Origin: a virus
Reading direction: 5' to 3' (one strand)
Length of the DNA stretch: 64,000 nt
IMG/VR virus record: IMGVR_UViG_3300045988_114753
The notes below the pieces were generated by a model. It did not search any database. It saw only the letters and a list, made by a program, of their open reading frames with translations, and was not told the origin of the DNA. The position numbers and the translations under genes were made by a program. Each line of letters opens with the position of its first letter. The first letter of the stretch is position 1. Below are positions 25,772-42,005 of the stretch, piece after piece.

Positions 25772-25790
25772 AATAATCTCCCAATCAAAA

Positions 25791-25948: not shown

Positions 25949-25951
25949 AAA

Positions 25952-26028: not shown

Positions 26029-26033
26029 AATTA

Positions 26034-26109
26034 TGGAGTGGGAAACGGGACTCGAACCCGCAACAGTCTGCTTGGAAGGCAGAGACTCTACCAATTGAGC
26101 TATTCCCAC
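26034..26109 (-). tRNA. tRNA-Gly (TCC)
   Basis: GTGGGAA..TCTGC CTTCCAA GCAGA..GCGGG TTCGAGT CCCGT-TTCCCAC-T-CCA. Confidence 0.8.
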
Positions 26110-26344
26110 ATAAGTGATAGATGCCCACAAAGTGGGCGATGCTTAACTCCTTCTACTTTGTGTTTTACCCATTGGGTCGCCGAAGCTAGGCTGGGACTAT
26201 CAACTCCCGTCAAAAATAAATAGGCACTCTTTTATGTATTTTTATCTCAATTTCCTTTACTTGTCTGCGACCATCATACACATTTGACCAGACAATTCCT
26301 ATTTATATGAGCCCTTCTTTAGTATGAATTAAATACGAGGGGTG

Positions 26345-26494
26345 TTAAAACTTATTTTTAATCTTTTCAATTATTTCTTTTAACTTATCTGTGAGGTTGA
26401 TTTCTTTTTTATTTTTAGTATCCCTCACAACTACATCTTCGTCCAGAACTATGAATAACAATAATAAAATAATAATAATTAATATTGCTCCCAT
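26345..26494 (-). CDS. 49-aa small membrane protein
   Basis: AGGAGG, 8 nt, ATG. Translates to MGAILIIIILLLLFIVLDEDVV...; below the track length cut-off. Confidence 0.5.
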   Translation of the reverse strand: MGAILIIIILLLLFIVLDEDVVVRDTKNKKEINLTDKLKEIIEKIKNKF

Positions 26495-26518
26495 TGTTTC
26501 AACCTCCTACTTTTTCAA

Positions 26519-26594
26519 TGGCGTCTTAGGAAGGACTCGAACCTCCGACCTATTGGTTAACAGCCAACCGCTCTACCAACTGAGCTACTAAGAC
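26519..26594 (-). tRNA. tRNA-Asn (GTT)
   Basis: GTCTTAG..GTTGG CTGTTAA CCAAT..GGAGG TTCGAGT CCTTC-CTAAGAC-G-CCA. Confidence 0.8.
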
Positions 26595-26598
26595 AAAA

Positions 26599-26676
26599 TG
26601 GTGACCTCTGCGGGATTTGAACCCACGATACCACCGTGAAAGGGTGGTGGCTTAAACCAGACTTGCCGAAGAGGCC
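26599..26676 (-). tRNA. tRNA-Glu (TTC)
   Basis: GGCCTCT..CCACC CTTTCAC GGTGG..GTGGG TTCAAAT CCCGC-AGAGGTC-A-CCA. Confidence 0.75.
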
Positions 26677-26679
26677 AAA

Positions 26680-26931
26680 TTATTCTATGATTATAGAGTT
26701 ATTTTCCAAGTATTTTATCATTGATTTTAATACTTCTTGATAAAACTCTTTTCCCATACATTCTGTAGTGACTTGAAAACTTCTTGTTTCACCTTCACAA
26801 CCATTTTCATATGGGTCTTCCAAATTAGAATAAATATCTAATTCTCCAAAACCAGGTGTGCCGTGCCATAAACATTTAATATGCCCTTCTCTAATAACAA
26901 CACCATCAACCTCGATTTTTCTATCTTTCAT
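26680..26931 (-). CDS. hypothetical protein
   Basis: ATG 26931 (MKDRKIEV) after GGAGAA. The track N-terminal extension overlaps tRNA-Ser. Confidence 0.55.
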   Translation of the reverse strand: MKDRKIEVDGVVIREGHIKCLWHGTPGFGELDIYSNLEDPYENGCEGETRSFQVTTECMGKEFYQEVLKSMIKYLENNSIIIE

Positions 26932-26950
26932 ACTTATTCTCCTTTTAAAA

Positions 26951-27042
26951 TGGCGTCCACTAGAGGGCTCGAACCTCTGCGTCAACTTAATCGACCTAAG
27001 AGTTTAGCAAACTCTCCTCTTCACCAACTTGAGTAAGTGGAC
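26951..27042 (-). tRNA. tRNA-Ser (GCT), long variable arm
   Basis: GTCCACT..AGAGT TTGCTAA ACTCT-TAGGTCGATTAAGTTGACGC-AGAGG TTCGAGC CCTCT-AGTGGAC-G-CCA. Confidence 0.8.
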
Positions 27043-27049
27043 ATTAAAT

Positions 27050-27136
27050 TGGTGCTCCTGAATGGATTTGAACCATCACGGGATTACTCCCAACGGATTT
27101 TAAGTCCGTTGCGTCTGCCTATTCCGCCACAAGAGC
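27050..27136 (-). tRNA. tRNA-Leu (TAA), long variable arm
   Basis: GCTCTTG..ACGGA CTTAAAA TCCGT-TGGGAGTAATCCCGT-GATGG TTCAAAT CCATT-CAGGAGC-A-CCA. Confidence 0.8.
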
Positions 27137-27143
27137 ATTAAAA

Positions 27144-27218
27144 TGGTGCCGACACCTCGATTTGAACGGGGAACCTATCGCTTACAAGGCGATTGCACTA
27201 CCGTTGTGCTATGTCGGC
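27144..27218 (-). tRNA. tRNA-Thr (TGT)
   Basis: GCCGACA..ATCGC CTTGTAA GCGAT..CCCCG TTCAAAT CGAGG-TGTCGGC-A-CCA. Confidence 0.8.
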
Positions 27219-27366
27219 ATAAAATAGGATAAACTGTATAGATGAAGGTACGTACAACATCACTATCGGCTTTTAATTTTTACTCGTATCAATATTACAA
27301 GATTAGTCGGCACTTGGGGCAAAACTGATTGCCACCCTTGATACGAAACCTATATAAATTACTAAA

Positions 27367-27442
27367 TGGTGGTCAGACCTGGGATTGAACCAGGGACACT
27401 AGCATTTTCAGTGCTATGCTCTACCAACTGAGCTATCTAACC
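27367..27442 (-). tRNA. tRNA-Phe (GAA)
   Basis: GGTTAGA..TAGCA CTGAAAA TGCTA..CCTGG TTCAATC CCAGG-TCTGACC-A-CCA. Confidence 0.8.
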
Positions 27443-27458
27443 AAGAAAGAAGAATTAA

Positions 27459-27791
27459 TTATTCTACGATGTCATAGATACTTTGTTTTAGTTCTTCTAT
27501 TGATTTTGTTAAATCATTATAAATATCTTGATGAATTTTAGCATATTCTTCGCCTTTTTTGATTTCTGCACGAACTTCATTACGAATTGCTACTAACATT
27601 GCACGTCTAGCTCTTCTATAACTGATTTTCGCACCAATTTCAACATCAAAAGTATCTTCTGGAGAACATTTTGCCACTCCAACGAATTTTAATGCTGGAT
27701 TTTCATTAGTCCCTAATAATAATGTAGTGACTGTTCTTCTTTTTTCATCAACGATTACTTTCTTTTCTGTCTTTGGTAATCTGATTTTCAT
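27459..27791 (-). CDS. hypothetical protein
   Basis: AAAGGAGGA RBS; track ORF between tRNAs. Confidence 0.65.
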   Translation of the reverse strand: MKIRLPKTEKKVIVDEKRRTVTTLLLGTNENPALKFVGVAKCSPEDTFDVEIGAKISYRRARRAMLVAIRNEVRAEIKKGEEYAKIHQDIYNDLTKSIEELKQSIYDIVE

Positions 27792-27819
27792 AATTAATCC
27801 TCCTTTTTTACAAAATTAA

Positions 27820-27897
27820 TGGTCGGGAATGCAGGATTTGAACCTACGACCTCTAGTTCCCAAAACTAGCGTTCTAGCCAAGCTGAACTAATTCCCG
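27820..27897 (-). tRNA. tRNA-Pro (TGG)
   Basis: CGGGAAT..CTAGT TTTGGGA ACTAG..GTAGG TTCAAAT CCTGC-ATTCCCG-A-CCA. Confidence 0.8.
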
Positions 27898-27900
27898 AAA

Positions 27901-27978
27901 TGGTGGAGAATGTGGGGCTCGAACCCACAACCTACTGCGTGCAAGGCAGTCGCTCTAGCCAATTAGAGCTAATTCCCC
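27901..27978 (-). tRNA. tRNA-Ala (TGC)
   Basis: GGGGAAT..ACTGC CTTGCAC GCAGT..GTGGG TTCGAGC CCCAC-ATTCTCC-A-CCA. Confidence 0.8.
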
Positions 27979-27983
27979 AATAC

Positions 27984-28060
27984 TGGCGGTTCGTACGAGA
28001 TTTGAACTCGTGATTTCCTGCGTGACAGGCAGGCGTCATAGACTACTAGACCAACGAACC
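27984..28060 (-). tRNA. tRNA-Asp (GTC)
   Basis: GGTTCGT..CCTGC CTGTCAC GCAGG..ACGAG TTCAAAT CTCGT-ACGAACC-G-CCA. Confidence 0.8.
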
Positions 28061-28070
28061 ATAACATATT

Positions 28071-28565
28071 TCAGTCAGCATATTCCCAATAATAACCATA
28101 CGCTGTTTTCCTTTTACCCTTACAAACATCTGTGATATGAGAGTCGTGTCCTCTAACAGCTTTTGCAGCTTCTGATAAAGAATTATATTTTGCAATGATA
28201 TTACCACGCATATCTTTTTGAATACATTTTCTCTTATGATTATTTTCAAAATTCATTGCTCCAATTTTAATTGCGTGTTGTGTATTATATTGATAGGTAC
28301 ACCATTCTAAATTCCAATAATTATTATTTTTTGAATTATTATCTATATGATTAACTATTGGATAATTATTTGGGTTGGGCACAAAATACAAAGCAACAAG
28401 TCGATGTGGGAATACTGTTTTCAATGTGTGATTAACAGAAATAGTTGTTCTCAAATATCCTCTACGGTTAGGTGTCAACTTTAAAACACGCCCTGTAATA
28501 TCATTTCTAATTCTTCCATAATTACTGATAGAATATTTATTAACAAAATTTCTCCATTCTTCCAC
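28071..28565 (-). CDS. HNH homing endonuclease (NUMOD4-like N-terminus, HNH_3 core)
   Basis: EEWRNF..YSISNYGRIRN; HRLVALYFVPNP...VNHIDNNSKNNNYWNLEW. GTG 28565 after AAGAGGTG is preferred, because the track start overlaps tRNA-Trp. Confidence 0.75.
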   Translation of the reverse strand: MEEWRNFVNKYSISNYGRIRNDITGRVLKLTPNRRGYLRTTISVNHTLKTVFPHRLVALYFVPNPNNYPIVNHIDNNSKNNNYWNLEWCTYQYNTQHAIKIGAMNFENNHKRKCIQKDMRGNIIAKYNSLSEAAKAVRGHDSHITDVCKGKRKTAYGYYWEYAD

Positions 28566-28590
28566 CGTCACACCTCTTTTACAATAATAA

Positions 28591-28665
28591 TGGCACGGGA
28601 TTGAGGTTATGCTCCCCATACTTCGGTTTTGGAGACCGACGTCTTTCTGATTAGACTAATCCCGT
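28591..28665 (-). tRNA. tRNA-Trp (CCA) with atypical T loop
   Basis: ACGGGAT-TA-GTCT AATCAGAA AGAC-G-TCGGT CTCCAAA ACCGA-AGTAT-TGGGG AGCATAA CCTCA-ATCCCGT-G-CCA. Confidence 0.6.
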
Positions 28666-29837: not shown

Positions 29838-30303
29838 ACTTCTCCTCCAATTCTTTGAATGTTAATGGTGTGTCATTAATAATTATTACTAAACTTTCTC
29901 CACCATCGCCGAACCAGTGTTGATAATATAGATTATTTTGAAGTGCATTTATATACTCATTTCCGTCTTTATCCATCCAAGGGACACTAATGTAATCATT
30001 AGAACCATCTTCATATATTATGTCTAAATGTGTTATGTCTTTATTTTCAATTCTATCTTCTAATAAAGTTTTATCATCCCAGCCTCCAATAGTCGTTAAC
30101 CCTTTACGATTGATAGACAGTAACATTTCTTTGCAAGATACACTTTCGTACACTTCACCATCTTCATATTGAAATACGTTAACTCCAATATTTCTTGTTA
30201 CATCATTAACTACGCACATATCTATCATTTTTGGTGTTAAGCTATATACTTCACAATTTTCAAAAACTATATCTATTGTTTTTATCTTTTTATTCTTCAT
30301 CAT
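29824..30303 (-). CDS. hypothetical protein
   Basis: Track ORF, tiled on the - strand. Confidence 0.6.
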   Translation of the reverse strand: MMKNKKIKTIDIVFENCEVYSLTPKMIDMCVVNDVTRNIGVNVFQYEDGEVYESVSCKEMLLSINRKGLTTIGGWDDKTLLEDRIENKDITHLDIIYEDGSNDYISVPWMDKDGNEYINALQNNLYYQHWFGDGGESLVIIINDTPLTFKELEEKYGIR

Positions 30304-31273
30304 TTTCCCTCCATTCTTTTAACTGACAAGCATTCTCATTTCTACCCCATATATCTGCATCGTGCAATAACTCTAACATATGATATAGGTCATCATCATT
30401 AAACATTTCTTTAATTGGTGTCATATCTTCTCTACGATACCACTCCATATGATTTAATATTAAGGCTCCAATTTGATATGAACTATCATATAAACGCACT
30501 CTATCCAAATCATCTCTCATATTTTGTTTTCTCACGTGGCACATAAATAAATAAGTAGAGACTTTATCGTGTCCATAATACACAAAACAGTTTTTCTTAT
30601 CATTAAATGTTTTAGTGTATAATTTACCAAAATCGTGATAACGAGCTGCTTGTCTTAAGATTTCAGCATCAATACGTAATTTTAAGTTTTTACCTAAATC
30701 CTCTGCTCTCTTTACGACTGCTTTTATATGTTCTTCTAGTGTTTCACAATGATGTGGGTTATCTTGTTTATAGTCTATACAATCGTCTATTAAGAAATTA
30801 TAATCGTATACATCATTATACATACCGCCGTCTATTAAATATATATTATCAAAACCTTCATAATACATTGGTGGTTCTATACTCTGTATCATTTGAATTA
30901 ATTTGTCCCAAGGTATTTGTCTTTCTTGTCTAGTGATATTTCTTTCTAATATTATATTTATAGGGGTGCAACATAAATAAGCGTTAACTTCAGCATCACA
31001 CATTTTAGCCCTCTTTATTATATCACTCCTACGTTTTTTATTAAGATTTGTAGCATCATATATAACATCAAAGTCATTTTGTAGTGCTGTTAAAGTTTCT
31101 CTTTTCATTCTCTCAAAAACTTCTGCGTTGTGGGTTTGGTCTTCAAAACCAAACATATCAACTCTTATATCGTCGCTAGATAAATATACGGTGTTATCGG
31201 TTAATAATTCAGTTTTTGCATATTTTGTCTTTCCACTCCCTGGTATTCCAATCATTATATTTAATTTTGCCAT
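30290..31273 (-). CDS. P-loop kinase (polynucleotide-kinase-like) fused to HD phosphohydrolase
   Basis: IGIPGSGKTKYAK...LSSDDIR...YDATNL kinase layout. C-terminal HHCETLEEH...RYHDFGK HD motif. ATG 31273 after GAGGGAGG. Confidence 0.65.
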   Translation of the reverse strand: MAKLNIMIGIPGSGKTKYAKTELLTDNTVYLSSDDIRVDMFGFEDQTHNAEVFERMKRETLTALQNDFDVIYDATNLNKKRRSDIIKRAKMCDAEVNAYLCCTPINIILERNITRQERQIPWDKLIQMIQSIEPPMYYEGFDNIYLIDGGMYNDVYDYNFLIDDCIDYKQDNPHHCETLEEHIKAVVKRAEDLGKNLKLRIDAEILRQAARYHDFGKLYTKTFNDKKNCFVYYGHDKVSTYLFMCHVRKQNMRDDLDRVRLYDSSYQIGALILNHMEWYRREDMTPIKEMFNDDDLYHMLELLHDADIWGRNENACQLKEWRENDEE

Positions 31274-31340
31274 TATATAGCCTCCCTCTATCATATCTAT
31301 TAAAATTATAACAAAAAAAACGCATTAAGTCAATATGTTT

Positions 31341-31703
31341 TTATAAATTATTTGCAGAAAATAAATTTTCTATAGGAAACTCCATATTTTGAGAACAACG
31401 AGGACATAAACAATCGTTGATATAAGGTTTGATTTCCCTACCACAACAATCACAATAATTCCCTAAACAAAACTCTTTAGCAAATTTTTTAGACATTCTT
31501 TCCGTAGCATTTCCTTGCACGATGCCTCCAGTATCTTTACTAATATAATAATCGTCTTGAAGAACCCCAAATCTATTGCTATAGAAATCAGGTTTAATTA
31601 TTTCCGCATTAGTCATAAAGCCTAAAAATACATTACCGTTTTGGCTATCTACAGCTTTTATGCGAAAATCTCTATTAGATGTTAAATCTACATTATCTTT
31701 CAT
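31341..31703 (-). CDS. zinc-ribbon protein
   Basis: CDCCGREIKPYINDCLCPRCS. Confidence 0.6.
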   Translation of the reverse strand: MKDNVDLTSNRDFRIKAVDSQNGNVFLGFMTNAEIIKPDFYSNRFGVLQDDYYISKDTGGIVQGNATERMSKKFAKEFCLGNYCDCCGREIKPYINDCLCPRCSQNMEFPIENLFSANNL

Positions 31704-32466
31704 TTTTTCTAAATAATCTTCTTAATGAAAACTTCTTATTTCTTTTTAGGCTATTAAATTCTTTATCATTTAGACGTCTTAAATTATCATCAAGTCTTTC
31801 TAATTCTTCTTTTATTTCGTCGGTATTTGTAGGTACGACCACTGTTTGTAATTTTTCTTTGCCAGCCTCTTGTAAGAATTTATCCATTGTTAGGTCGCAA
31901 TATTCATCTTCCCAATCGCCTAAAAAATAAAAACGGTCATTTAATACTACACCACCATTTCGAGTGTCAGTACGTGGCTTTTGAAATGTCCCAAACAACA
32001 TAGGGTCTTTCTCTCTACGTTCTTTAGCAACCTCCTTTTCAGCCTTTCCAGTATAATCAGTAAAGACAACATACATTTTATCAAATATATCTTTTGTCTT
32101 AGCAATAACTTGTACAATATTATCTGGTATATCTCTAGGATAATTTTCCAATTCAATAATTTTAACTACATTTTTAGAAATGTTATCAATATAATCTTCA
32201 ATATCATCTCTATACACAAATGAATTAATACCTAAACCAACTACTTGCATCTCTTTTTCAATGTTGTCTGCTAAAAATCTTAACTTTTCAATAACACGCT
32301 TTTGACCAGTTATGCTATATTTTTCTACTAATAGTAAATAACCATTATAAAGGTCTTTTAAATCTTTGTCTGTTACTGTTTGTTTCTTTTCTTTTAAATA
32401 ATTAAAATATTGAGTAGCATTTAGTTCTTCAACGTTGACTTCGGTTATCTTCTTTTTGCTTGTCAT
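31693..32466 (-). CDS. hypothetical protein
   Basis: Track ORF; overlaps the stop of the radical-SAM gene. Confidence 0.65.
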   Translation of the reverse strand: MTSKKKITEVNVEELNATQYFNYLKEKKQTVTDKDLKDLYNGYLLLVEKYSITGQKRVIEKLRFLADNIEKEMQVVGLGINSFVYRDDIEDYIDNISKNVVKIIELENYPRDIPDNIVQVIAKTKDIFDKMYVVFTDYTGKAEKEVAKERREKDPMLFGTFQKPRTDTRNGGVVLNDRFYFLGDWEDEYCDLTMDKFLQEAGKEKLQTVVVPTNTDEIKEELERLDDNLRRLNDKEFNSLKRNKKFSLRRLFRKNER

Positions 32467-33359
32467 TTATTTTCACTTCCTTTTATTATTTTGAACATAT
32501 CATCAATATTGCTTAATAGTGGATAACGTTCAACGGATGTAGATGTCTTTGCAAATTGTTTGTTTACTAAATCAACATACATCGTATGTGTGCCGTCATC
32601 CCCTTGATAAAACTTATTCCATTGCTCATCTGTTAATACATCTTTAACAGCTAATTGTTCTATCGCTAAGTTATCAAATGATATAACTTTAAATTTCCCC
32701 ATTAAACTAGATAAATTATTTTTTAACCAATCTATTTGTACTTGGATGATTGCACTCGCTTTTTCTAGTAAATCGTGTCCTCGTCCAAAGTCTTTATACC
32801 CTAATATTAATATTTTTACACCTTTATTTGCGAAATAATCAAACACATCTCCACCGTGAATACCAGCAATAAGATGAACCACTAAATTTGGATTATTTTT
32901 TATTGCATTATCCCAAAATTCGTCATCAAATGATGTGAATGAGACACCTAAACCATAAATTAATTTTTCATTTACCAATTTGTTAATTAATTCTAAATGT
33001 CCTTTAAACTCTTTTTGATTGACCGTAATACTAGGTATGACACCTCTTGCCTTTAATTTTTCTAAAAAAGGAATAAGGTCTGGATGACCTGTAACAGCTC
33101 CTCCACCTATTGCCATCTCAGTTCCAGGGCGAAGTTTGTCTATAAATTCAGCATTCATAATATCTCCGTGTTTGCCATCTGGTGTTGATTTTTCGTGACA
33201 CATAGGACATCCAAAAGGACATCTATTAGTGATTTTGCAGTCCATTGACTCTGGGTAATCTGCCTCAAAAAAATCTAAATCATTTTCTCTAATTTTAGTC
33301 CCATCATCAAATATTGTTACAAAATAATTTCCATTTTTATAATGTGCTAATTGTTTCAT
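32463..33359 (-). CDS. radical SAM enzyme (no SPASM extension seen)
   Basis: CxxxCxxC cluster TNRCPFGCPMCHE; GGGAVTGHPD (GGE-like). Confidence 0.75.
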   Translation of the reverse strand: MKQLAHYKNGNYFVTIFDDGTKIRENDLDFFEADYPESMDCKITNRCPFGCPMCHEKSTPDGKHGDIMNAEFIDKLRPGTEMAIGGGAVTGHPDLIPFLEKLKARGVIPSITVNQKEFKGHLELINKLVNEKLIYGLGVSFTSFDDEFWDNAIKNNPNLVVHLIAGIHGGDVFDYFANKGVKILILGYKDFGRGHDLLEKASAIIQVQIDWLKNNLSSLMGKFKVISFDNLAIEQLAVKDVLTDEQWNKFYQGDDGTHTMYVDLVNKQFAKTSTSVERYPLLSNIDDMFKIIKGSENK

Positions 33360-33377
33360 TTTTATCCCTCCTTATTC

Positions 33378-33746
33378 TTAATAGTCTTGTCCGTAATAAC
33401 CAAAGGCAACTACAGTATCTCCATTTGGTGTATTATATTTATCGACATATGTTTCGTATTCTATATAATCATAGTCGTTAAACTCCTCGTATGTATAATA
33501 TGTCTTATCATCATCATTTAGATATTCTTCAAGTTTATCCTTAAAATCTGGGTCTTCTTTACTAACTCCTGTATTTTCTTTTAGAAATTCCTCTTCCACC
33601 GTTTCTTTAGAAACCAATTCATCATTCCATCTATTCCAATACATCTCACCATTTTTCCATTTTAAGAAATCACTCTCCATACACATTGTTATTGAATGTG
33701 TACTACTACTATTTGTTTCAAATGTTCCTATTCTTATTGTTCTCAT
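33378..33746 (-). CDS. FETNSSSTH-motif family paralog 1 (short)
   Basis: MRTIRIGTFETNSSSTHSIT. Confidence 0.7.
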   Translation of the reverse strand: MRTIRIGTFETNSSSTHSITMCMESDFLKWKNGEMYWNRWNDELVSKETVEEEFLKENTGVSKEDPDFKDKLEEYLNDDDKTYYTYEEFNDYDYIEYETYVDKYNTPNGDTVVAFGYYGQDY

Positions 33747-33747
33747 A

Positions 33748-34107
33748 TTACCACCTATCTCCTCTATAAATACTCATAATAACATTATTACCTAGTTCTT
33801 TTTGCTCTACTTCCGCAAAACTCTCGACATACTCTGCCGATGCGTTATCGTCATCAATTACATAACAATAATCGCTTTCCATAAAACTATATTCGCTTTC
33901 AAAGTGTTGTCCGTCATAATCAACAGACCCATCTTCGTTTCTTACAATTTTTTTATCTTCATCGGTTAAGTCTTGCACTTGCCCAGAATGAAGGTTTAAT
34001 GTCTTTTTATTATTTTGCCACGCTTTATAATCTTCTTTTGATAGAATTACTAATGCGTGAGTACTACTAGAATTAGTCTCAAATGTGCCATATCTTATTG
34101 TCTTCAT
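33748..34107 (-). CDS. FETNSSSTH-motif family paralog 2 (short)
   Basis: MKTIRYGTFETNSSSTHALV. Confidence 0.7.
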   Translation of the reverse strand: MKTIRYGTFETNSSSTHALVILSKEDYKAWQNNKKTLNLHSGQVQDLTDEDKKIVRNEDGSVDYDGQHFESEYSFMESDYCYVIDDDNASAEYVESFAEVEQKELGNNVIMSIYRGDRW

Positions 34108-34109
34108 TA

Positions 34110-34619
34110 TTAATCCCTCCCAAACTCTATAACGGTATCTTCTCTTAATACTTCGTCTAATAAATTACGGTCGTGATTTACCAAATCTTCTAGTAACTCA
34201 TCTAAATTAGAACATATTATTTGGTGATTAATATTTACTATATCTTCTAAATCACTATATGTGTCACCATCTTCATCAGTCCATCTGTTAATTTTATATT
34301 CTTTTGGTAACACTACTTTCTTTCCATACCTTGACATCACGAAATCAGCAATTCGCTTAAAATCAAATGACTTTTCCACTTGTTCTTTTAGGTCGTCATA
34401 ATCATATACATCCCATTTGTATCTATTTATAATTTGTGATACCAAATATGATACTTTTTCTTTTAGAGTAGATAAAACTCTACAATCGTCAGTATCTATA
34501 AACTCTACAACTAATGTATCGCTAGGTGATAAATAATCACTATGGTCTCCTTTGGTAACACTAAGTGCGTGTGTACTGCTACTATTTGTTTCAAAAATTC
34601 TATTTCTAATTATTTTCAT
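34110..34619 (-). CDS. FETNSSSTH-motif family paralog 3
   Basis: MKIIRNRIFETNSSSTHALS; mid EKVSYLVSQ; INHQ; C-terminal EFGRD. Confidence 0.7.
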   Translation of the reverse strand: MKIIRNRIFETNSSSTHALSVTKGDHSDYLSPSDTLVVEFIDTDDCRVLSTLKEKVSYLVSQIINRYKWDVYDYDDLKEQVEKSFDFKRIADFVMSRYGKKVVLPKEYKINRWTDEDGDTYSDLEDIVNINHQIICSNLDELLEDLVNHDRNLLDEVLREDTVIEFGRD

Positions 34620-34806
34620 TTTCTGATGCCTCCTTAAAATTATTTTTTATATATTCTTCTGGGGTTATATCCTCATCTGCATTCATTTCATCTGGTTCAT
34701 AGTAACCCTCCCAGTTATCTACACCATTGTTTATAAGTCTAGTTAACTCCCAACTGTCTTCAATTAATTGCTTTAAACTTTTTTCGCTTATTATATAACT
34801 TTTCAT
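34606..34806 (-). CDS. hypothetical small acidic protein
   Basis: Track ORF between paralogs. Confidence 0.6.
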   Translation of the reverse strand: MKSYIISEKSLKQLIEDSWELTRLINNGVDNWEGYYEPDEMNADEDITPEEYIKNNFKEASENENN

Positions 34807-34809
34807 ATT

Positions 34810-35595
34810 TTAATTTCCTTTCAAATAAACATCGTTATTTTTTTCGTACTCTTTTAATTTCTTCCAGAAATCACTATTGTCATACGGATACTCTTTACAA
34901 TATCTATCCCAATACTCATCTTTTATATGACCGTCTTTATCAAACCAATCTGCTGGTGGCTTTTCCCAATCTTCATTCACACAACATCCCTCACTGTCGT
35001 AGTCATATTCAAAGCCAATAGTTTTTATGTTATAGCCCCTAAACTCATCACCACCAATTGTTATATAACTATCTCTATTAAAAATAAATCTTTTAACAAA
35101 TTCGTCATCAGTTTTTAATCTTGCAACAAAGTCTGTACCGTCTAAACCATTTGCGTGGTCTATGTAATTTCCATATCTTTCCTTTAGTATTAAACAAGTA
35201 TCACTGCCAGTTAAATCCCCATCGTCGCCCTTTCTGTCGATGTAGTTAAATACATCTTGTGGTGTAGGATTATATCTTTTATTAGTTTCTAATTGTTTCC
35301 ATATTGCAATCACTCGCTTTTTAAAGTCGTCAATTTCGTCTTTATTTGTAGCATCTTGTGGTTTCCAATTATCGTCATAATGCGACCATTCATAATTATT
35401 TATCAACATCATATAAGCATACGCTAATTTTTCGTCCCAATTATCACACAAACGGCATTCTTCTCTGCCAAACGCATAATCGTGGTCTAAACTATCATAC
35501 AAGTCATATTCCTCATTATTAGCTTGTTTAGGCACCACAATTGCGTGTGTACTTGAACTATTAGTTTCAAAACTTCCATATCTAATCGTTTTCAT
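34810..35595 (-). CDS. FETNSSSTH-motif family paralog 4 (longest)
   Basis: MKTIRYGSFETNSSSTHAIV; EKLAYAYMM; YIDHANG; ITIGGDEF. Confidence 0.7.
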   Translation of the reverse strand: MKTIRYGSFETNSSSTHAIVVPKQANNEEYDLYDSLDHDYAFGREECRLCDNWDEKLAYAYMMLINNYEWSHYDDNWKPQDATNKDEIDDFKKRVIAIWKQLETNKRYNPTPQDVFNYIDRKGDDGDLTGSDTCLILKERYGNYIDHANGLDGTDFVARLKTDDEFVKRFIFNRDSYITIGGDEFRGYNIKTIGFEYDYDSEGCCVNEDWEKPPADWFDKDGHIKDEYWDRYCKEYPYDNSDFWKKLKEYEKNNDVYLKGN

Positions 35596-35606
35596 CTGTT
35601 ACACAC

Positions 35607-36179
35607 CTATCTTTCCATTCCATAAGGGCATACTTCGTTATTGATAAATACATCTTTGTCAAAAATTATTTCTTTTATCTTGTTTTTGAATTTTTCTTTG
35701 TCTGACACTTGTAATAAATCTTTAATTCCAATACACTCATCATAAGTTGTTTCGTAAAATGGAAACCAATCATTTTCTGGTCGGACATAATCTATCATAG
35801 TGCCAGTTTCTTCTAATACTGCCTCTTGTAACCAAACAAACAAATCTGTTTTTATCATTTTTTCAAATACTTCCTCGTTGTAACCCTTTTCATTTCTTCT
35901 ATCATAATCCCACATATCGTCGTGTGTATCCTCAACAACACTAGCAATCATATTGATTATAAAACTTAATTTTTCTGTTTCGGTACGAAGTGTATCACAA
36001 GCATATTCTTCGTCGCCACCTCCACAATCTCCATATTCTACTACACTCAATAACTTTCCAGTATCTCTAGTTAAATTTCTAGGTATATCATCTTCTCTAG
36101 GTTTTTGATATTTTGAAATTGTAATGCTATGTGTACTACTAGAATTTGTTTCAAAAGTTCCGTATCTAATTGTTTTCAT
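35607..36179 (-). CDS. FETNSSSTH-motif family paralog 5
   Basis: MKTIRYGTFETNSSSTHSIT; EKLSFIINM. Confidence 0.7.
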   Translation of the reverse strand: MKTIRYGTFETNSSSTHSITISKYQKPREDDIPRNLTRDTGKLLSVVEYGDCGGGDEEYACDTLRTETEKLSFIINMIASVVEDTHDDMWDYDRRNEKGYNEEVFEKMIKTDLFVWLQEAVLEETGTMIDYVRPENDWFPFYETTYDECIGIKDLLQVSDKEKFKNKIKEIIFDKDVFINNEVCPYGMER

Positions 36180-36185
36180 TATTTA

Positions 36186-36416
36186 TCACTCTCCTATTTT
36201 AAAACTAACTTTTTCTACTATTTCACTAAGATAAACAAACCAAGTACCCTCTTTATAATATTCTCTGTTATAACCATATTCATCGTCATGTTTACCTTTA
36301 TATTGCTTATCAATTAAATACACCTTATTTAAAGATATTGGTTCATTTTTTATATCAACTATTGTTGCAATAGTTCCATTAATCAATCTAACTCTATCTT
36401 TAATCTTTAATATCAT
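36186..36416 (-). CDS. hypothetical protein
   Basis: AGAGGT RBS; track ORF. Confidence 0.6.
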   Translation of the reverse strand: MILKIKDRVRLINGTIATIVDIKNEPISLNKVYLIDKQYKGKHDDEYGYNREYYKEGTWFVYLSEIVEKVSFKIGE

Positions 36417-36726
36417 TTATACCTCTTTCTAGTTCTAACATTTTATCTAAAATTGCAACGAACCATTCGGTATCTATAAACACATCTTCTGGTATTTCAG
36501 TTTTAATATATTTTTTTAACTCAGCCCAATTATCTTTTAGTTGTTTATTTTCTTGTTGTAATTGTTCAAATTTTTCTTCATCATTTAGCCAATGACTAAT
36601 TTTGGTTTTACCATCAGTGTAAATACCTTTAATATTACCATTATCACTCTTATAAGTATATAGTAATCTAAAACTATTTTTAACCAAATGCCAGTCATTA
36701 CCCTGTAATCTTTGAAATTTTTCCAT
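36400..36726 (-). CDS. hypothetical protein
   Basis: Track ORF. Confidence 0.6.
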   Translation of the reverse strand: MEKFQRLQGNDWHLVKNSFRLLYTYKSDNGNIKGIYTDGKTKISHWLNDEEKFEQLQQENKQLKDNWAELKKYIKTEIPEDVFIDTEWFVAILDKMLELERGINDIKD

Positions 36727-36747
36727 TATCTACACCATTTCTTTCCG

Positions 36748-37176
36748 TTAATTTTGTTGTTCTTGTAACATTTCAATCTCTTGATTTAATTCTTTTATTT
36801 TATCTTTTAGTCTAGCAATTTCTAATTCCATTGCTCCACCATCTAACCAATGATGTAAATACCCCTCATCAAATTCTCTTTTGTCTATTATCGATTGTCC
36901 AAACAAATCACAGGCACTAGATAATAATCGTTGTAACCTACAAGCTTGTTCTTGATTAAGTTTGCTATATTCTTTGTCTTTATATATTTTACTACACAAA
37001 TCTTCGCCATAATAGCAAACCATATCATAACTGATTTCTCTAATCATTTTTAATACTTCTTGTAGTGTTAAGGTGCTAATAACATATTCTAATACCTTAT
37101 TCATTCTATCTAAATTTAATTCTTTTGCGTAAAAATCTTTACGAGGTTGTATGTCTTTTGTAATTTCATTATCCAT
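36748..37176 (-). CDS. hypothetical coiled-coil protein
   Basis: ATG 37176 after GAGGGTGGA. C-terminal heptad-like IARLKDKIKELNQEIEMLQ. Confidence 0.6.
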   Translation of the reverse strand: MDNEITKDIQPRKDFYAKELNLDRMNKVLEYVISTLTLQEVLKMIREISYDMVCYYGEDLCSKIYKDKEYSKLNQEQACRLQRLLSSACDLFGQSIIDKREFDEGYLHHWLDGGAMELEIARLKDKIKELNQEIEMLQEQQN

Positions 37177-37603
37177 TATCATTTCCACCCTCTATATAAG
37201 AACTATCACTTAGTAGAAAAGTTAATAATGTATCGTCGTCTTTATATATTTCTTCTATTTCTTCTTGATACCAATCTTCGTGGTCTACATAACCATTTCT
37301 ATATTCTTCATAAGTAGGCAATTCAAAATCAATTCCTAGATTATGCAATCTTTCTTGAATTGGTTTTATTTTGTCTTGCAAGTTCTTTTCATTAAAGTCA
37401 TAGCACACTAGACATCTAATCATATATGCCAACTTTTCTTCTATGGTGTCCCAAGTTTCAAATTGCCAACCAAATTCCCCGTACCAATCTGGGTTGACTG
37501 TTATAGGAAGAATATCATACTTCCCGTTCTTATTTTCGCCAACTGTTATGGAATGTGTAGAACTGCTATTGGTTTCAAATACATTATTTCTTATTTTTTT
37601 CAT
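37169..37603 (-). CDS. FETNSSSTH-motif family paralog 6
   Basis: MKKIRNNVFETNSSSTHSIT; EKLAYMIRC; YVDHED; YIEGGND. Confidence 0.7.
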   Translation of the reverse strand: MKKIRNNVFETNSSSTHSITVGENKNGKYDILPITVNPDWYGEFGWQFETWDTIEEKLAYMIRCLVCYDFNEKNLQDKIKPIQERLHNLGIDFELPTYEEYRNGYVDHEDWYQEEIEEIYKDDDTLLTFLLSDSSYIEGGNDNG

Positions 37604-38009
37604 TCTTCTCTGCTCCTTTGATTATTTCTTTAACATCTGCCTTTATTTGTTTCTCGGCACTCTTTTTAAGTCGCTCAATCTCTTTATCTCTTTTTGATAA
37701 TGTTGATTGTACTTCTTCCAAGGTTTCATTTAAGGCTCTTATTTCCACTTTTAACTCTGCTATTTCTTTCTTTTGTTCCTTTGTTAAATTATAAGTTTCG
37801 CCATACAAATCGTGATAATAAATATATTGGTCAAAGCCTTTTCCTTTTTCTTCTAATAGACTAATGTATTTTTTAACTACATCATCATATTCCCCTTTTA
37901 ACTTTTTATAATCTTCCTTATCGTGTTTTCTTTTCTTTCTTAACTGCTTATTCTCTTCAAGTATAGTGTCCTCGTCCCCTTCTCCAAAAAAATCTTTAAA
38001 TATACTCAT
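37584..38009 (-). CDS. hypothetical coiled-coil protein
   Basis: Lys/Glu-rich heptad pattern. Confidence 0.6.
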   Translation of the reverse strand: MSIFKDFFGEGDEDTILEENKQLRKKRKHDKEDYKKLKGEYDDVVKKYISLLEEKGKGFDQYIYYHDLYGETYNLTKEQKKEIAELKVEIRALNETLEEVQSTLSKRDKEIERLKKSAEKQIKADVKEIIKGAEKNEKNKK

Positions 38010-38024
38010 AATATTTCCTCTCTT

Positions 38025-38558
38025 TTATTTTAATAATTTCTTTATTTCTTTTTCTGCAAGCACTTTTCGTTCTTGCGTATCGTCTGCGTCTAAACCAAAT
38101 CTACGATACCTATATTGTTGATTAAGTTTCTTTGTTGTTTTTCGTATTTCCGTTAAAAAGAATGGTCTTTGTGTTTCTATTGCTAATTTATTTCTATGTG
38201 TACTATATGTTTTCTTAATTTCATAATCATTACACAAACCTCTTCTTATTAATCTTTTTTGCTTAATCAACTTAATCATTTTAGCACATTCTTTAGCCGA
38301 CAAATTATTGTTTTCAATATAATGTAGTAAGTCGCTTAACTCCTCATCTACTTGTGATTGTAAATTAGGGAGGTCGTTAAAATAATCATCTATATCTTTT
38401 AACATTTCCTCAACACCTAATATTTGTGAAACAATAGGAGAGAAAGATGTGTCGGTTTCCTCCGTTTCTCCTCCGTTTTGTTCTAATTCTTGTTCTTTCA
38501 TTTGATATGACAATTCTTCCAAACTTATACCAACTTTATCAAGTTCCGTTTCCGTCAT
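38025..38558 (-). CDS. hypothetical protein
   Basis: Track ORF. Confidence 0.6.
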   Translation of the reverse strand: MTETELDKVGISLEELSYQMKEQELEQNGGETEETDTSFSPIVSQILGVEEMLKDIDDYFNDLPNLQSQVDEELSDLLHYIENNNLSAKECAKMIKLIKQKRLIRRGLCNDYEIKKTYSTHRNKLAIETQRPFFLTEIRKTTKKLNQQYRYRRFGLDADDTQERKVLAEKEIKKLLK

Positions 38559-38569
38559 TCTTATACCTC

Positions 38570-39472
38570 CTAGTCTTCTTCTATATTTCTAAATGCGTCT
38601 TCATTTAACATAGCCATTTTTATTGCGTCCTCTTTAGAGTGAGAATAGTTATTTGTAGTAGCCATATTTGAATGCCCCGCCATATCTCTCACTACTTGTA
38701 TAGGTACTCCTTTATTAAGTTTTCCAGTAATAAAGCCGTGTCTTAATTTGTGTGGGGACATTTCGTCGCTCCAATACAAACCAATTCTACTAGCACAAGT
38801 TTTTAAACTTTTTGAAAAACTTTGCCTTGTCAAAACATTTCCCTCGTCGCCAATAAACAACAAGTCAGTCTTTACTCCAGTTCTTTCCACAATATGTTTC
38901 CTTTTATTGTTAATAAAATCTTTACATATTTTAGCACAAGATGGTGTAAACCATATAGTTCTTTCCTTTCCACCTTTACCCTCAACAACTGCAAAACCTC
39001 TTTCAATATCAGCACAATTAATTTGTATCATTTCTTTAAAACGAACTCCAGTGCATTGCATTACCGATATACCTGCCCTCACTCTTTCATTTGACGACAT
39101 TCTAATCATTTGCTCTGCTATATCTCCGTCTGCATATTTTCTTTCTTTATGTGGTGTCTTTGCAAGAGGTATATTTCCAATTTTTCTATCAACTAATATA
39201 TCTTTTTCAGTTTCAAGATATGAATAAATTTGTTTTATTGCACTTAATTTATTATTTCTAGTAGACGGCTCGTTTCCTTTATCTACTTGTTTAGAAAGCC
39301 AGTCTTTGATAATTTGTGCGTTTACATTTATGAAAGTTTTATAATCTTTAATATTCATTTCTTCACAAAATTCTTTAATATGATTGATATATAAGTCTAC
39401 ACTATTACTATTTCTACCCTCAATGTCAACCTTGTAAGTTTTAAATTCTTTTAGTAAAATTTCCATATTCAT
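38570..39472 (-). CDS. tyrosine recombinase (XerC/D / phage-integrase family)
   Basis: GVRFKE (Arg I), HKLRHGF, GHSNMATTNNYSH (catalytic Tyr). ATG 39472 after GAGGGAGGTG. Confidence 0.8.
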   Translation of the reverse strand: MNMEILLKEFKTYKVDIEGRNSNSVDLYINHIKEFCEEMNIKDYKTFINVNAQIIKDWLSKQVDKGNEPSTRNNKLSAIKQIYSYLETEKDILVDRKIGNIPLAKTPHKERKYADGDIAEQMIRMSSNERVRAGISVMQCTGVRFKEMIQINCADIERGFAVVEGKGGKERTIWFTPSCAKICKDFINNKRKHIVERTGVKTDLLFIGDEGNVLTRQSFSKSLKTCASRIGLYWSDEMSPHKLRHGFITGKLNKGVPIQVVRDMAGHSNMATTNNYSHSKEDAIKMAMLNEDAFRNIEED

Positions 39473-39520
39473 ATTTATTTCACCTCCCTCTATCTTCATT
39501 AATAGAATACTATATTTTTA

Positions 39521-39826
39521 TTACTTTGTCAAGTTATATTTGCCAATTTTCTCTAAATCTAATTGATATAGGGGATAAATGCAAAAACCACTAGCCTTGT
39601 ATTCTCCCGTTGGTAGCCCAAAATCATTGTCTACTAAAAAGTCTTCAGCCCAAGAACAATTATTGGTGTCAATATAAGCCATATTTTTTTCCAATAAGTC
39701 CCCAAGGTTGACTGTTATAATAGCCAATGGTGTACCGTCTTCGCATACTAATTCTAGTGCCGTGTTATTATTTGAATAACTCCTTATATTCATTTCTTTA
39801 ATATTATAATTTTTTACTCTTAACAT
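39521..39826 (-). CDS. hypothetical protein
   Basis: Track ORF. Confidence 0.6.
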   Translation of the reverse strand: MLRVKNYNIKEMNIRSYSNNNTALELVCEDGTPLAIITVNLGDLLEKNMAYIDTNNCSWAEDFLVDNDFGLPTGEYKASGFCIYPLYQLDLEKIGKYNLTK

Positions 39827-40017
39827 TATTTTCCCTCCTTAATCAATACAATTTTATAGAAAGTTCCGTCAAAACTAACTTTAACCTCTTTATTTATTAT
39901 TTGCTTTACTGCATCAACTTGCTCTTGAAAGAACACATAAGTATTTCCTTTATCTTTCAATTCTTCAACTGCGTCCTTTACAATACCCCTAAAATAAGCA
40001 TTTTCTTCCTCTAACAT
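39826..40017 (-). CDS. hypothetical protein
   Basis: Track ORF. Confidence 0.6.
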   Translation of the reverse strand: MLEEENAYFRGIVKDAVEELKDKGNTYVFFQEQVDAVKQIINKEVKVSFDGTFYKIVLIKEGK

Positions 40018-40028
40018 AAATTTCCTCC

Positions 40029-40523
40029 TTATTTTATCTTATAATTATCTTTATTTCTAAATTCGCCTTTAATGATACCCTCAATCGTTGTGTGGCTAAC
40101 TCCATACATTTCTGCCAACTTACGATAACTAATTTTAGTTGTAGGGTCATTCTTTTGCAACCTATTTTCTTTTGATTTTAGGTATATTTCTTTAATTTCT
40201 TCCACCTCTTTATCAGTTAATTTAGCTGAACTACTATTTTCGCCTTGCTTAATCATTTTGATTTTAAAAGGTCTTAAATTGTTAATACTGCAATCTTTTT
40301 CTTCTCCGTTAATATGTTGAATAATTATAGTCCTATCGTTGAAATTAAAGTTTTTAAAATTGAAAGCATAATATACAAAACGGGCATAATTCACTACTCT
40401 TTTCTTCTTTTGCTTTCCCCATTTTATAGAGATTTGCTTATTATTATTTAACTCTTTTCCACTTAAACCTATAATTTTACCATTTTCAAAAATTGTATAA
40501 CCCCATAACTCTACTTTCTTCAT
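40029..40523 (-). CDS. HNH homing endonuclease with C-terminal HTH
   Basis: IIQHINGEEKDCSINNL (HNH_3-like). C-terminal ISYRKLAEMYGVSHTTIEGI. Confidence 0.6.
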   Translation of the reverse strand: MKKVELWGYTIFENGKIIGLSGKELNNNKQISIKWGKQKKKRVVNYARFVYYAFNFKNFNFNDRTIIIQHINGEEKDCSINNLRPFKIKMIKQGENSSSAKLTDKEVEEIKEIYLKSKENRLQKNDPTTKISYRKLAEMYGVSHTTIEGIIKGEFRNKDNYKIK

Positions 40524-40524
40524 A

Positions 40525-40764
40525 CTATTTCCCCTCTATATAATTATTTAATTTATCTATTCCTAGTGTGAATATTGTAGCAAAATCTACATACACACTA
40601 TCTTTGTCTTTCCTATAAAATTTAACTCTTTTCTTATTATTACTTACCTTATAACCCCCAATTTTTTTCATTGCTCTTGCAATAGCCAAGTCTTGTGAAA
40701 TATCTTTACACATTTCATAAAATTCAAACTTTCCATATTTTTTTATAAAATCGGTGTTATTCAT
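40525..40764 (-). CDS. hypothetical protein
   Basis: Track ORF. Confidence 0.6.
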   Translation of the reverse strand: MNNTDFIKKYGKFEFYEMCKDISQDLAIARAMKKIGGYKVSNNKKRVKFYRKDKDSVYVDFATIFTLGIDKLNNYIEGK

Positions 40765-40767
40765 AAG

Positions 40768-40857
40768 TTAATTTCCTCTCTCGTCTTCTTCGTCGTCGTC
40801 CTTTACAATTCCATTTAATAGTCCACTTAAACCCCACATAATTAATAAATCTAACAT
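40768..40857 (-). CDS. 29-aa micro-ORF, TAATG-coupled
   Basis: AGGAGGAAAAATA-ATG overlaps the upstream stop. Translates to MLDLLIMWGLSGLLNGIVKDDDEEDERGN. Confidence 0.4.
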   Translation of the reverse strand: MLDLLIMWGLSGLLNGIVKDDDEEDERGN

Positions 40858-41117
40858 TATTTTTCCTCCTCTGTGTTTTCTAATTCTTTGTTAATATATA
40901 TTAATTCGTCATTTAATTTTTCTAGGTCGTAATTACATAATCTTATTCTGTTTTCTACTTCTATTTTACGACGACCCAATTCTATTTTTCTAGCATTTAA
41001 CATTGTTTGTTCACTTTTCATTTTTGGAAAGCCCTCTTTTAAATATTTATCTAGGGTAGGTCTTGATATACCCATTGCCTTTGCTAGAGAACTTTTAGTC
41101 AACTTCTCGTTTGCCAT
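40857..41117 (-). CDS. HTH DNA-binding protein
   Basis: LTKSSLAKAMGISRPTLDKYLKEG. Confidence 0.65.
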   Translation of the reverse strand: MANEKLTKSSLAKAMGISRPTLDKYLKEGFPKMKSEQTMLNARKIELGRRKIEVENRIRLCNYDLEKLNDELIYINKELENTEEEK

Positions 41118-41127
41118 TTTTTACCTC

Positions 41128-41616
41128 CTAACAAGTGATTTCTATACCACAAATTTCTCCGTCTTTCATATAAAGTTCTGCTACATATTCTCCGTCGCCA
41201 CAACTTGTATTTACCCACACACCATTGTCGTCAGTTATATTAGCACCTCTTCTTAAAGTTTTAGTAAAATCACAAATATTTTTGTCATACCAATCTTCGT
41301 CTATCTTATTTTCAAAATGATATTTTTCATAATAATCTTTATCAAATATTCCAATAGTACCACTATCAACTCCTAAAGACGCACTATCTACCACCTCGTC
41401 ATAATCATTAAATATAGTCATACCATAATCTTCGTGTGCTACACTTAATATCACTTGTTGTTCCATTCCGTCTTCAAACTCGTTATATTCATAATCAATA
41501 ACCCAGTTTCCACTTTTAACTTTCTTTAATAATTGTTGACACCAAGTTGTTATATCATAACAAGGGTCAGTAAGATAAACTTCTTTTCCTAATTTAATTA
41601 CTTTATTTGTTTCCAT
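41128..41616 (-). CDS. hypothetical protein
   Basis: Track ORF. Confidence 0.6.
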   Translation of the reverse strand: METNKVIKLGKEVYLTDPCYDITTWCQQLLKKVKSGNWVIDYEYNEFEDGMEQQVILSVAHEDYGMTIFNDYDEVVDSASLGVDSGTIGIFDKDYYEKYHFENKIDEDWYDKNICDFTKTLRRGANITDDNGVWVNTSCGDGEYVAELYMKDGEICGIEITC

Positions 41617-41726
41617 ATTATTTTTTCTCCTTTTCCTTTACTTTTTGTTCTAAATTATCATACAATATATCTAGTCTATCAAATAATTTGTCAAATTTTT
41701 CTACAAGTTCTTTGTCTACTGCCATA

Positions 41727-42005
41727 TTAATTTTCTTTATGCTTTCTTATTCCGTCCCAGATATATTCAATTAAAATTTCAGTTAAACTTTCTCCAAAAT
41801 AATCGCTATCAATTACATTATTTGCAATACTTTGTAAATCTTGTAGTGTCAATATCTTTCCATTATTTTCGTTGTGTCTTTCTTTTTCCATATAATCATA
41901 AGAATATTCGTTATAAACCTCTAATAATATTCCGTTATATAAACTATCTCCTATATTATTGTGTGTTTCTATATAATCACATACTTCCTTATATAATTCT
42001 TTCAT
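41727..42005 (-). CDS. hypothetical protein
   Basis: Track ORF. Confidence 0.6.
   Translation of the reverse strand: MKELYKEVCDYIETHNNIGDSLYNGILLEVYNEYSYDYMEKERHNENNGKILTLQDLQSIANNVIDSDYFGESLTEILIEYIWDGIRKHKEN

Follow-up and report, generated by a model that had tools for sequence, protein, structure and literature searches.

The 64-kb stretch of virus DNA analyzed here (IMG/VR record IMGVR_UViG_3300045988_114753; hereafter the window, to whose whole length all positions refer) carries six minus-strand open reading frames (ORFs) whose products share the N-terminal pattern M[KR]xIRxxxFETNSSSTH, directly followed by a gene for a radical S-adenosylmethionine (rSAM) enzyme. We propose, with a probability of roughly 0.45 based on comparative sequence analyses, that this one rSAM enzyme recognizes and modifies the shared N-terminal segment, hereafter the tag, on a set of interchangeable acidic effector proteins. 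The tag, RxxxFETNSSSxH at residues 5-17, would be the handle by which the adjacent rSAM enzyme recognizes its partners and most likely also the site that is modified after translation. One enzyme would serve several interchangeable, fast-diverging acidic bodies (i.e., long, short, Cys-rich and Tad2-fused), an arrangement that may be viewed as a protein-scale analogue of the gene clusters for ribosomally synthesized and post-translationally modified peptides (RiPPs), where one maturase serves many precursors. Once mature, the tagged proteins would stay whole and serve as effectors in the course of infection, plausibly to counter host defenses.

The earlier note on this DNA had listed six paralogous ORFs with a common N-terminal motif, and all six are present on the minus strand within positions 33378-37603 (Table 1). 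Across their alignment M1, I4, R5, F9, E10, T11, N12, S13, S14, S15, T16 and H17 are invariant (tag in peptide form, MKKIRNNVFETNSSSTHSITV); outside the tag the six proteins share little, with a mean column identity of 30%. The further motifs described for paralogs 3, 4 and 6, i.e., EK[LV][AS]Y, [IV][DN]H and a C-terminal G[GR][DN], are likewise present, as is EKLSF in paralog 5. When the whole window was scanned in all six frames, E[TS]N[ST][ST][ST] turned up at the six paralog sites alone, and because any given 9-mer should occur about 1e-7 times per window, a chance origin of the motif is excluded. The motif serines S13-S15 are encoded by AGT/AGC codons in some copies and by TCT/TCA codons in others; this switching between AGY and TCN serine codons argues for selection on the protein and rules out a DNA repeat or recent gene conversion as the source of the identity. 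A GGAG-type ribosome-binding site is recognizable upstream of five of the six copies, that of paralog 4 being weak. The acidic character remarked on before holds for all six proteins, with isoelectric points (pI) of 4.2-4.6 and net charges of -12 to -21, and the median pI of the tagged family is 4.6. Orthologues of paralog 4, 261-262 aa in length, are encoded in L002 and L006, the most closely related loci.

The linkage between the rSAM gene and the tagged genes is obligate, same-strand and mutual. Among 81 IMG/VR loci seeded with the tag, 75 contain an adjacent rSAM homologue (31-81% identical); all tag-seeded loci were chosen via the motif, so that motif-less homologues would escape, a point partly answered by the profile search described below. 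When IMG/VR and GTDB contigs are pooled, an rSAM homologue lies beside the tagged gene in 136 of 158 loci, always on the same strand and with a median gap of 515 bp, and about half of the exceptions stop at a contig edge. In the reciprocal test, one to six tagged ORFs on the same strand, most often two, are found in all 80 rSAM-seeded loci, and a single rSAM gene is accompanied by one to nine tagged genes. No third gene generally co-occurs in 82 loci, the next most frequent being DNA methyltransferases (21/82 and 10/82), and no protease, exporter/transporter or immunity family recurs in the same 82 loci. The array lies directly upstream of the rSAM gene, which starts 19 nt downstream of paralog 1, as had been described, but the kinase-HD gene that was said to share their transcription unit is three genes further on and is preceded by a good promoter-like site, so that a common transcription unit is no more than a possibility. 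As a candidate part of the module this gene was rejected, its homologues being present in just 8 of 81 loci.

The two partners are also found fused. In L021/L022 (8109-9470) the rSAM part comes first and the tag stands at residue 307, the tagged part in L021 being of the same GRD subtype as paralog 3; in L153 (2310-3992) the tag is N-terminal and the rSAM domain is found at residues 306-416. Such fusions were first suggested by a 461-aa "Radical_SAM domain" protein that, together with uncharacterized phage proteins, matched the AlphaFold model of paralog 6 in BFVD. When rSAM-only sequences were included, MAFFT placed free tagged proteins on the rSAM N-terminus ("KIR" occurs in both); alignments made without them were correct. 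Together, linkage and fusions support a functional link between the neighboring rSAM gene and the tagged family.

A homologous gene pair is found in the Microcystis phage Ma-LMM01, in which a single gene separates the tagged gp130 from the downstream rSAM gene gp128. In published transcriptome data all three genes, gp128, gp129 and gp130, are of middle class B5, and gp130 is the only one preceded by a predicted promoter (PMC5780444, Table S3). The Ma-LMM01 homologues of the tagged and rSAM genes are hence middle genes, in a class that also includes DNA-replication genes, whereas the earlier note had spoken of an early-gene block. The intervening gp129 (L001:5535-5873) matches "Phage ProQ C-terminal-like" PF24203 (E 6.7e-15), an equivalent of which was not detected in the window.

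To compare the remainders of the proteins, the tag was removed and 460 non-redundant bodies from 238 loci and the window were grouped into classes. The long class, with 260 members, is characterized by EFGW, EKxxY, GY[IV]DH and GNDN and often by a Y.KGN end, and holds paralogs 3, 4 and 6. The short class, with 147 non-redundant members in 132 loci, ends in a C-terminal TTPSGDxVVAFGYYGYDG and holds paralog 1. Paralog 2 falls into the short group at BLAST E<1e-3 and into a separate class of eight at E<1e-4, while the body of paralog 5 belongs to a small class of its own with nine members. A Cys-rich class of 13 members (~240-318 aa) has the same N-terminal tag, and about 17 further small body groups were found. 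The Cys-rich bodies (e.g., L130:1613-3488, L145, L147 and L154) share the motif C..RYFC.G.LD.C.CG, which is possibly metal-binding. Between long and short bodies no similarity was detected (hhalign probability 0.4%), and the long class and the paralog 5 class have a partial relation (65.6% over 26 columns). The short class is without the DH and GNDN motifs, yet its tag is unaltered. In these comparisons the tag thus behaves as a portable module that is independent of the body, and since it is invariant on unrelated bodies, including those without DH and GNDN, its function should not depend on a body-specific active site. Because it is invariant on unrelated bodies while always dependent on the presence of the rSAM gene, the tag is best explained as an element for rSAM recognition and, most likely, modification.

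Among 237 loci the commonest architecture is long-short-rSAM (90 loci), followed by a long member alone (33 loci), and the long class accompanies the rSAM gene more constantly than any other (206 loci). The window has the long-short-rSAM order, with additional copies. The loci most closely related to it have 4-5 tagged copies, and among the closest relatives the number varies from 4 to 6. Several earlier suggestions have to be revised on these grounds. The short members had been said to keep the N-terminal module only, but paralog 1 belongs to a conserved class of 147 with a C-terminal motif of its own and paralog 2 to a class of eight. A role as rSAM substrate had been considered for these two members alone, but the linkage extends to all classes and is most constant for the long one. 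The motif itself had been taken for a catalytic or ligand-binding site of one fold, but it heads dissimilar bodies and its residues 1-12 are modeled with low confidence, which a portable recognition or modification tag fits better.

The tagged family is large and widespread. In a HMMER profile search in which every sequence was read, 8,383 representatives (clustered at 50% identity) score E<=1e-3 and 3,717 reach E<=1e-10, the matched region of the best 150 beginning at residue 1-7. The exact RxxxFETNSSSxH is present, beginning at residue 5-6, in 141 of 145 new representatives obtained by HMMER profile search without a word index; the remaining four have FESNSSS or WETNSSS. GY[IV]DH is found in all 145, a GNDN-like motif in 140 and a Y.KGN ending in 101. 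A word-indexed search returned 128 homologues of paralog 6, all of them metagenomic and without an informative name. Among cultured or named phages, tagged members are encoded by Ma-LMM01 and MaMV, both Microcystis phages, and by the Lak megaphages of Prevotella, and an identical tag is found in phages of cyanobacteria (Ma-LMM01), Bacteroidota (Lak megaphages) and Firmicutes. A survey of 185,579 species-representative genomes gave only 120 occurrences of the motif, for the most part on contigs of 100-160 kb from gut and rumen metagenome-assembled genomes, and because of this scarcity and this type of contig we regard the family as essentially phage-borne. With rSAM fusions excluded, the tagged proteins are 92-318 aa long and their bodies are folded and conserved.

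The family is uncharacterized, without a Pfam, NCBIfam, PADLOC or PDB relative, and the earlier statement that the motif comes from no characterized family is borne out. Scans of the six paralogs and of 58 family members against Pfam, NCBIfam and PADLOC gave nothing credible, the sole PADLOC match of the paralogs being that of paralog 3 to PDC-M49B below noise (E 0.0054, no stretch passing alone). None of the 58 family members matches Pfam, and a profile search of PDB sequences found no match for the family (best E 0.09). The only library match of the tagged proteins is PHROG 28997 ("unknown function"), to which paralog 6 aligns with E 1.8e-10 (residues 3-143 on profile positions 5-142 of 165), paralog 4 with 1.1e-7 and paralog 3 with 7.7e-4; paralogs 2 and 5 match it with the tag only and paralog 1 does not match it. 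Literature searches gave no match to the motif string or to phage rSAM phrases, and broader searches no relevant result. In the AlphaFold model of paralog 6 (predicted local distance difference test score, pLDDT, 87.5; predicted template modeling score, pTM, 0.82), the body exceeds a pLDDT of 90 and tag residues 1-12 are below 50, which would fit an accessible segment, while the DH and GNDN motifs of the long class are placed at strand ends. Foldseek found no neighbor of this model in the PDB (best E 2.1).

The rSAM enzyme contains the CxxxCxxC cluster motif as CPFGCPMC at residues 47-54 and scores 30.7 bits against PF04055 (gathering cut-off 29.5), which makes it a member of the superfamily. 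It has four cysteines, C41, C47, C51 and C54, the last three of which are invariant among 35 and among 42 homologues. SPASM/twitch cysteines are absent, no Cys outside the cluster motif being conserved in the homologues except a facultative C58, and no PqqD or RiPP recognition element (RRE) Pfam match was found. The enzyme is 42% identical to Ma-LMM01 gp128 and belongs to a family of >6,258 homologue clusters at 90% identity, none of which is named; in PADLOC it reaches no more than E 0.0024 and 15 bits, against pVip. An assignment as NrdG was rejected, as NCBIfam NrdG matches reach 17 bits against a cut-off of 131. NrdD and a probable NrdG are encoded elsewhere in the window, so that the enzyme beside the paralogs is a second, separate rSAM enzyme. 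Its AlphaFold model (pLDDT 91.3, pTM 0.89) has alternating β/α elements that form a partial (β/α)6 TIM-barrel core and, at the N-terminus, a conserved sheet of three strands (residues 3-25, YxNGN...DGTKIR), without a winged-helix part. By Foldseek, the nearest PDB structure is SuiB in complex with its precursor peptide (E 4.7e-7, TM 0.58-0.60), and other near structures are AbmM, EpeE (5.7e-5), SpeY, TigE and PqqE (~1e-3) and BlsE; SuiB, EpeE, TigE and PqqE are peptide-modifying enzymes. Solved rSAM enzymes account for 18 of the 21 matches at E<=0.001, the other three, ranked lower, being aldolase and EAL-domain barrels.

With the SuiB/SuiA streptide, EpeE/EpeX epipeptide, PqqE/PqqA and TigE systems, the arrangement shares an rSAM enzyme encoded beside ribosomally made partners with a conserved segment. 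Unlike these systems, it is phage-borne, its enzyme has no SPASM/twitch cysteines and no recognizable RRE, its partners are folded proteins of 92-318 aa that have the conserved segment at their very N-terminus, and neither a protease nor an exporter gene goes with them; sequence similarity to those enzymes is limited to the cluster-binding region. In the prochlorosin system, ProcM serves about 30 ProcA peptides. Similarly, one enzyme here stands beside several paralogs with an invariant recognition part and a hypervariable rest, whose copy number varies among close relatives, but the enzyme is an rSAM protein instead of a lanthipeptide synthetase and the variable parts are whole domains of unrelated classes. 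The activases of PFL and NrdD and the sulfatase-maturating anSME take a hydrogen atom from a short conserved exposed loop of a folded protein, and anSME oxidizes a serine. Unlike the partners of those enzymes, the six paralogs and the family consensus lack the glycyl-radical motif RVxG[FWY], and the sulfatase/anSME-type (C/S)xPxR motif is also absent, FETNSSSxH having no Pro or Arg in register; the rSAM enzyme lacks the SPASM clusters of anSME. With no SPASM, no clear RRE, no short precursor and no glycyl or sulfatase motif, the system, an rSAM enzyme with putative ribosomal substrates, is outside every named family.

If the rSAM enzyme acts on the tag, the tag would be a substrate and not a docking peptide alone, and its chemistry might start with hydrogen abstraction at Ser/Thr, leading for example to epimerization, oxidation or a cross-link. 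For an enzyme that lacks auxiliary clusters, candidate reactions would be epimerization, a cross-link involving F9 or H17 and chemistry at Ser/Thr Cβ. Several points weigh against this proposal. The case for tag modification is wholly comparative. Most characterized peptide-modifying rSAM enzymes have SPASM/twitch clusters and an RRE, whereas this enzyme has neither the auxiliary clusters nor a recognizable PqqD-like domain, and the Foldseek neighbors of its core are weakly diagnostic because the PDB is rich in RiPP maturases. In the long class, GY[IV]DH and GNDN resemble a separate metal or active site, and this class, as the most constant partner, could be an enzyme or a subunit and no mere substrate. 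A β-strand that leads into a loop of small residues at the extreme N-terminus is also typical of HAD and P-loop active sites, and the low pLDDT of the tag in the model may reflect just an absent ligand or partner. The motif-based seeding of the loci, with the bias given above, counts here as well.

The same linkage, fusions and one-enzyme-many-partners pattern would be equally expected if the tag merely docked each body to the rSAM enzyme, for instance as a β-strand added to the invariant N-terminal sheet of the enzyme, and if the bodies brought targets (host proteins, nucleic acids or signaling nucleotides) that are modified in place of the tag. A Tad2-like fusion would then put a ligand-binding sponge domain next to the enzyme. 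We regard such an adaptor function as unlikely, though worth serious attention: nine successive invariant residues rich in Ser, Thr and Asn are unusual for a docking strand and better suited to an active-site substrate segment, and no third, target-like component is conserved. Nothing computed here separates the adaptor from the substrate model.

It is likewise improbable, to a similar degree, that the long-class proteins are themselves enzymes, e.g., metal-dependent hydrolases or phosphoesterases, in which E10, N12, S13-15 and H17 together with DH and GNDN act on a nucleotide or some small molecule before or after the rSAM enzyme, the remaining classes, the short one included, being regulatory or degenerate. 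The near-universal GY[IV]DH and GNDN-like motifs, their position at strand ends in the model, the constancy of the long class and its solitary occurrence in 33 loci would all fit, as would the N-terminal position of the motif, which is like that in HAD or P-loop enzymes. But classes without DH and GNDN, whose bodies have no detectable similarity to the long one, have the same invariant tag, multi-copy, fast-diverging and strongly acidic paralogs (pI ~4.5) are atypical of metabolic enzymes, and neither a hydrolase fold in the PDB nor, among the 58 members scanned, a Pfam family was matched.

A classical RiPP pathway, with the tag as leader or modified core of precursors that are cleaved to small bioactive peptides, has little in its favor beyond the RiPP maturases among the nearest structures of the rSAM enzyme and the several precursor-like genes ahead of one maturase. 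The tagged proteins are too long for this (92-318 aa, RiPP precursors being usually below ~100 aa), with conserved and confidently folded bodies that have C-terminal motifs of their own behind an N-terminal conserved part, and neither a co-occurring protease, exporter or immunity gene nor an RRE or SPASM domain was found; the leader-core-released peptide scheme raised in the earlier note is accordingly one we consider quite improbable. Least probable of all is that the tag is a trafficking signal that directs its proteins either into the capsid, from which they would be injected, or to a host machine, with the rSAM gene a mere neighbor: the T4 internal proteins, with a plastic locus, a shared N-terminal capsid-targeting peptide, hypervariable bodies and at least one anti-restriction factor among them, offer a parallel to the conserved N-terminus and hypervariable acidic bodies seen here, but they have no sequence relation to the tagged proteins, whose signal is tied obligately and mutually, with fusions, to an rSAM enzyme and not to a prohead protease or structural genes, is identical across phages of cyanobacteria, Bacteroidota and Firmicutes although capsid signals co-evolve with their scaffold, and in Ma-LMM01 belongs to a middle gene, in the class of the DNA-replication genes.

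Returning to tagged proteins as modified effectors, a counter-defense role is hinted at by two kinds of association. A Tad2-like (DUF2829) anti-Thoeris domain is C-terminal to long-class members at L064:371-1159, L065:5076-5864 and L075:9229-10017 (E 1.8e-5, 2.2e-6), fusions that are rare (3/540 ORFs); in the six window paralogs the corresponding PF11195 domain is absent, as is the gp5.9 domain. A gene of the T7 gp5.9 RecBCD-inhibitor family is embedded in the paralog array, with a 14-nt overlap with the start of paralog 3. It is context and not core module: among related loci such a gene occurs elsewhere only in L160, and since just one close relative has one, it appears to be a lineage-specific insertion. 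The Tad2 sponge and gp5.9 are thus known counter-defense proteins that are physically associated with the family, though rarely, and they are suggestive of a setting and not of a mechanism. The earlier idea of host takeover or anti-defense finds circumstantial support in these associations and in the DNA methyltransferase neighbors. A more far-reaching version, which is possible but which we hold with considerable doubt, is that of a novel, widespread kind of phage system in which the SPASM-less rSAM enzyme installs a radical-derived modification on a universal tag, FETNSSSxH, that can be attached to any effector domain, giving a modification-dependent class of counter-defense or host-takeover proteins that includes the sponge-domain fusions and in which the modified tag is a shared warhead or activation switch.

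The window is a large AT-rich phage-like genome that encodes a primase-helicase, Pol III alpha, NrdD, an Rnl1-type ligase, the kinase-HD protein and 18 tRNAs (Table 1). GC skew and coding strand switch at ~20 kb and ~60.7 kb, and the module is contained in the ~40-kb minus-strand block of mostly small genes between them. DUF4313, PcfJ-like and SprT-like families are also found in plasmid leading regions, and their presence hints that the block may be an establishment or anti-defense region. The 18 tRNA genes are for Ile (two), Cys, Met, Gln, Ser (two), Val, Gly, Asn, Glu, Leu, Thr, Phe, Pro, Ala, Asp and Trp, and the Rnl1-type ligase and the kinase-HD protein look like a tRNA-repair pair near the tRNA array. 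A good promoter-like site (31333-31305) precedes the kinase-HD gene; apart from this site, promoter and terminator scans were uninformative, with counts equal to those of shuffled sequence. The gene directly after the rSAM gene (31693-32466) is the sole part of positions 30000-42000 with DNA similarity (~80%) to C. difficile phiCD211-like phages.

Table 1. Tagged paralogs, the adjacent rSAM gene and other features of the 64-kb window.
Feature	Position	Strand	Remarks
Paralog 6, 144 aa	37169..37603	-	Long class, canonical: tag MKKIRNNVFETNSSSTH, then EFGW, EKLAY, GYVDH, GGNDN
Paralog 5, 190 aa	35607..36179	-	Tag on divergent body; of long-class features only EKLSF helix kept
Paralog 4, 261 aa	34810..35595	-	Long class: FGRE, EKLAY, YIDH, GGDE; C-terminal extension ending YLKGN
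Paralog 3, 169 aa	34110..34619	-	Long class, "GRD" subtype: EKVSY, NINH, C-terminal FGRD
Paralog 2, 119 aa	33748..34107	-	Short form: tag and C-terminal ...VIMSIYRGDRW
Paralog 1, 122 aa	33378..33746	-	Short class: tag, HSITMC, DFLKWKNGE helix, acidic linker, C-terminal NTPNGDTVVAFGYYGQDY
Radical-SAM enzyme, 298 aa	32463..33359	-	Starts 19 nt downstream of paralog 1; PF04055, PHROG 16999
T7 gp5.9 RecBCD-inhibitor family gene, 66 aa	34606..34806	-	PF25708 E 5.4e-12, 45.9 bits vs cut-off 24.5; PHROG 6234
257-aa protein directly after rSAM	31693-32466	-	phrog_10081 "transposase", E 4e-80; no Pfam domain
P-loop kinase fused to HD phosphohydrolase	30290-31294	-	AAA_33 and HD, weak Pnkp/PSTK similarity
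18 tRNA genes	20647-28665	-	Downstream of small-gene block
NrdD (E 3e-153, own Gly_radical domain), then 170-aa ORF, probably NrdG	15633-18060	+	
Rnl1-type RNA ligase	10074-11276	+	PF09511
Tyrosine recombinase	38570-39499	-	Phage_integrase and SAM-like N; in the middle of the long minus-strand small-gene block
DUF4313 protein	39521-39826	-	
PcfJ-like protein	49409-50965	-	
SprT-like protein	50977-51525	-	

Both partners of the system are very abundant in phages, and neither is named, has a family in Pfam or has any solved relative. If the rSAM enzyme modifies the tag, it would represent a new rSAM subfamily that dispenses with auxiliary clusters, the post-translational modification of these phage effectors would be new as well, and the tag would become a search rule for such effectors. 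With an invariant 17-residue tag and a compact 298-aa enzyme, the hypothesis is directly testable, and the pair may later be usable as an enzymatic protein-tagging tool. If the tagged proteins are counter-defense factors, their arrays, with up to nine copies, would be a large untapped catalogue of such factors.

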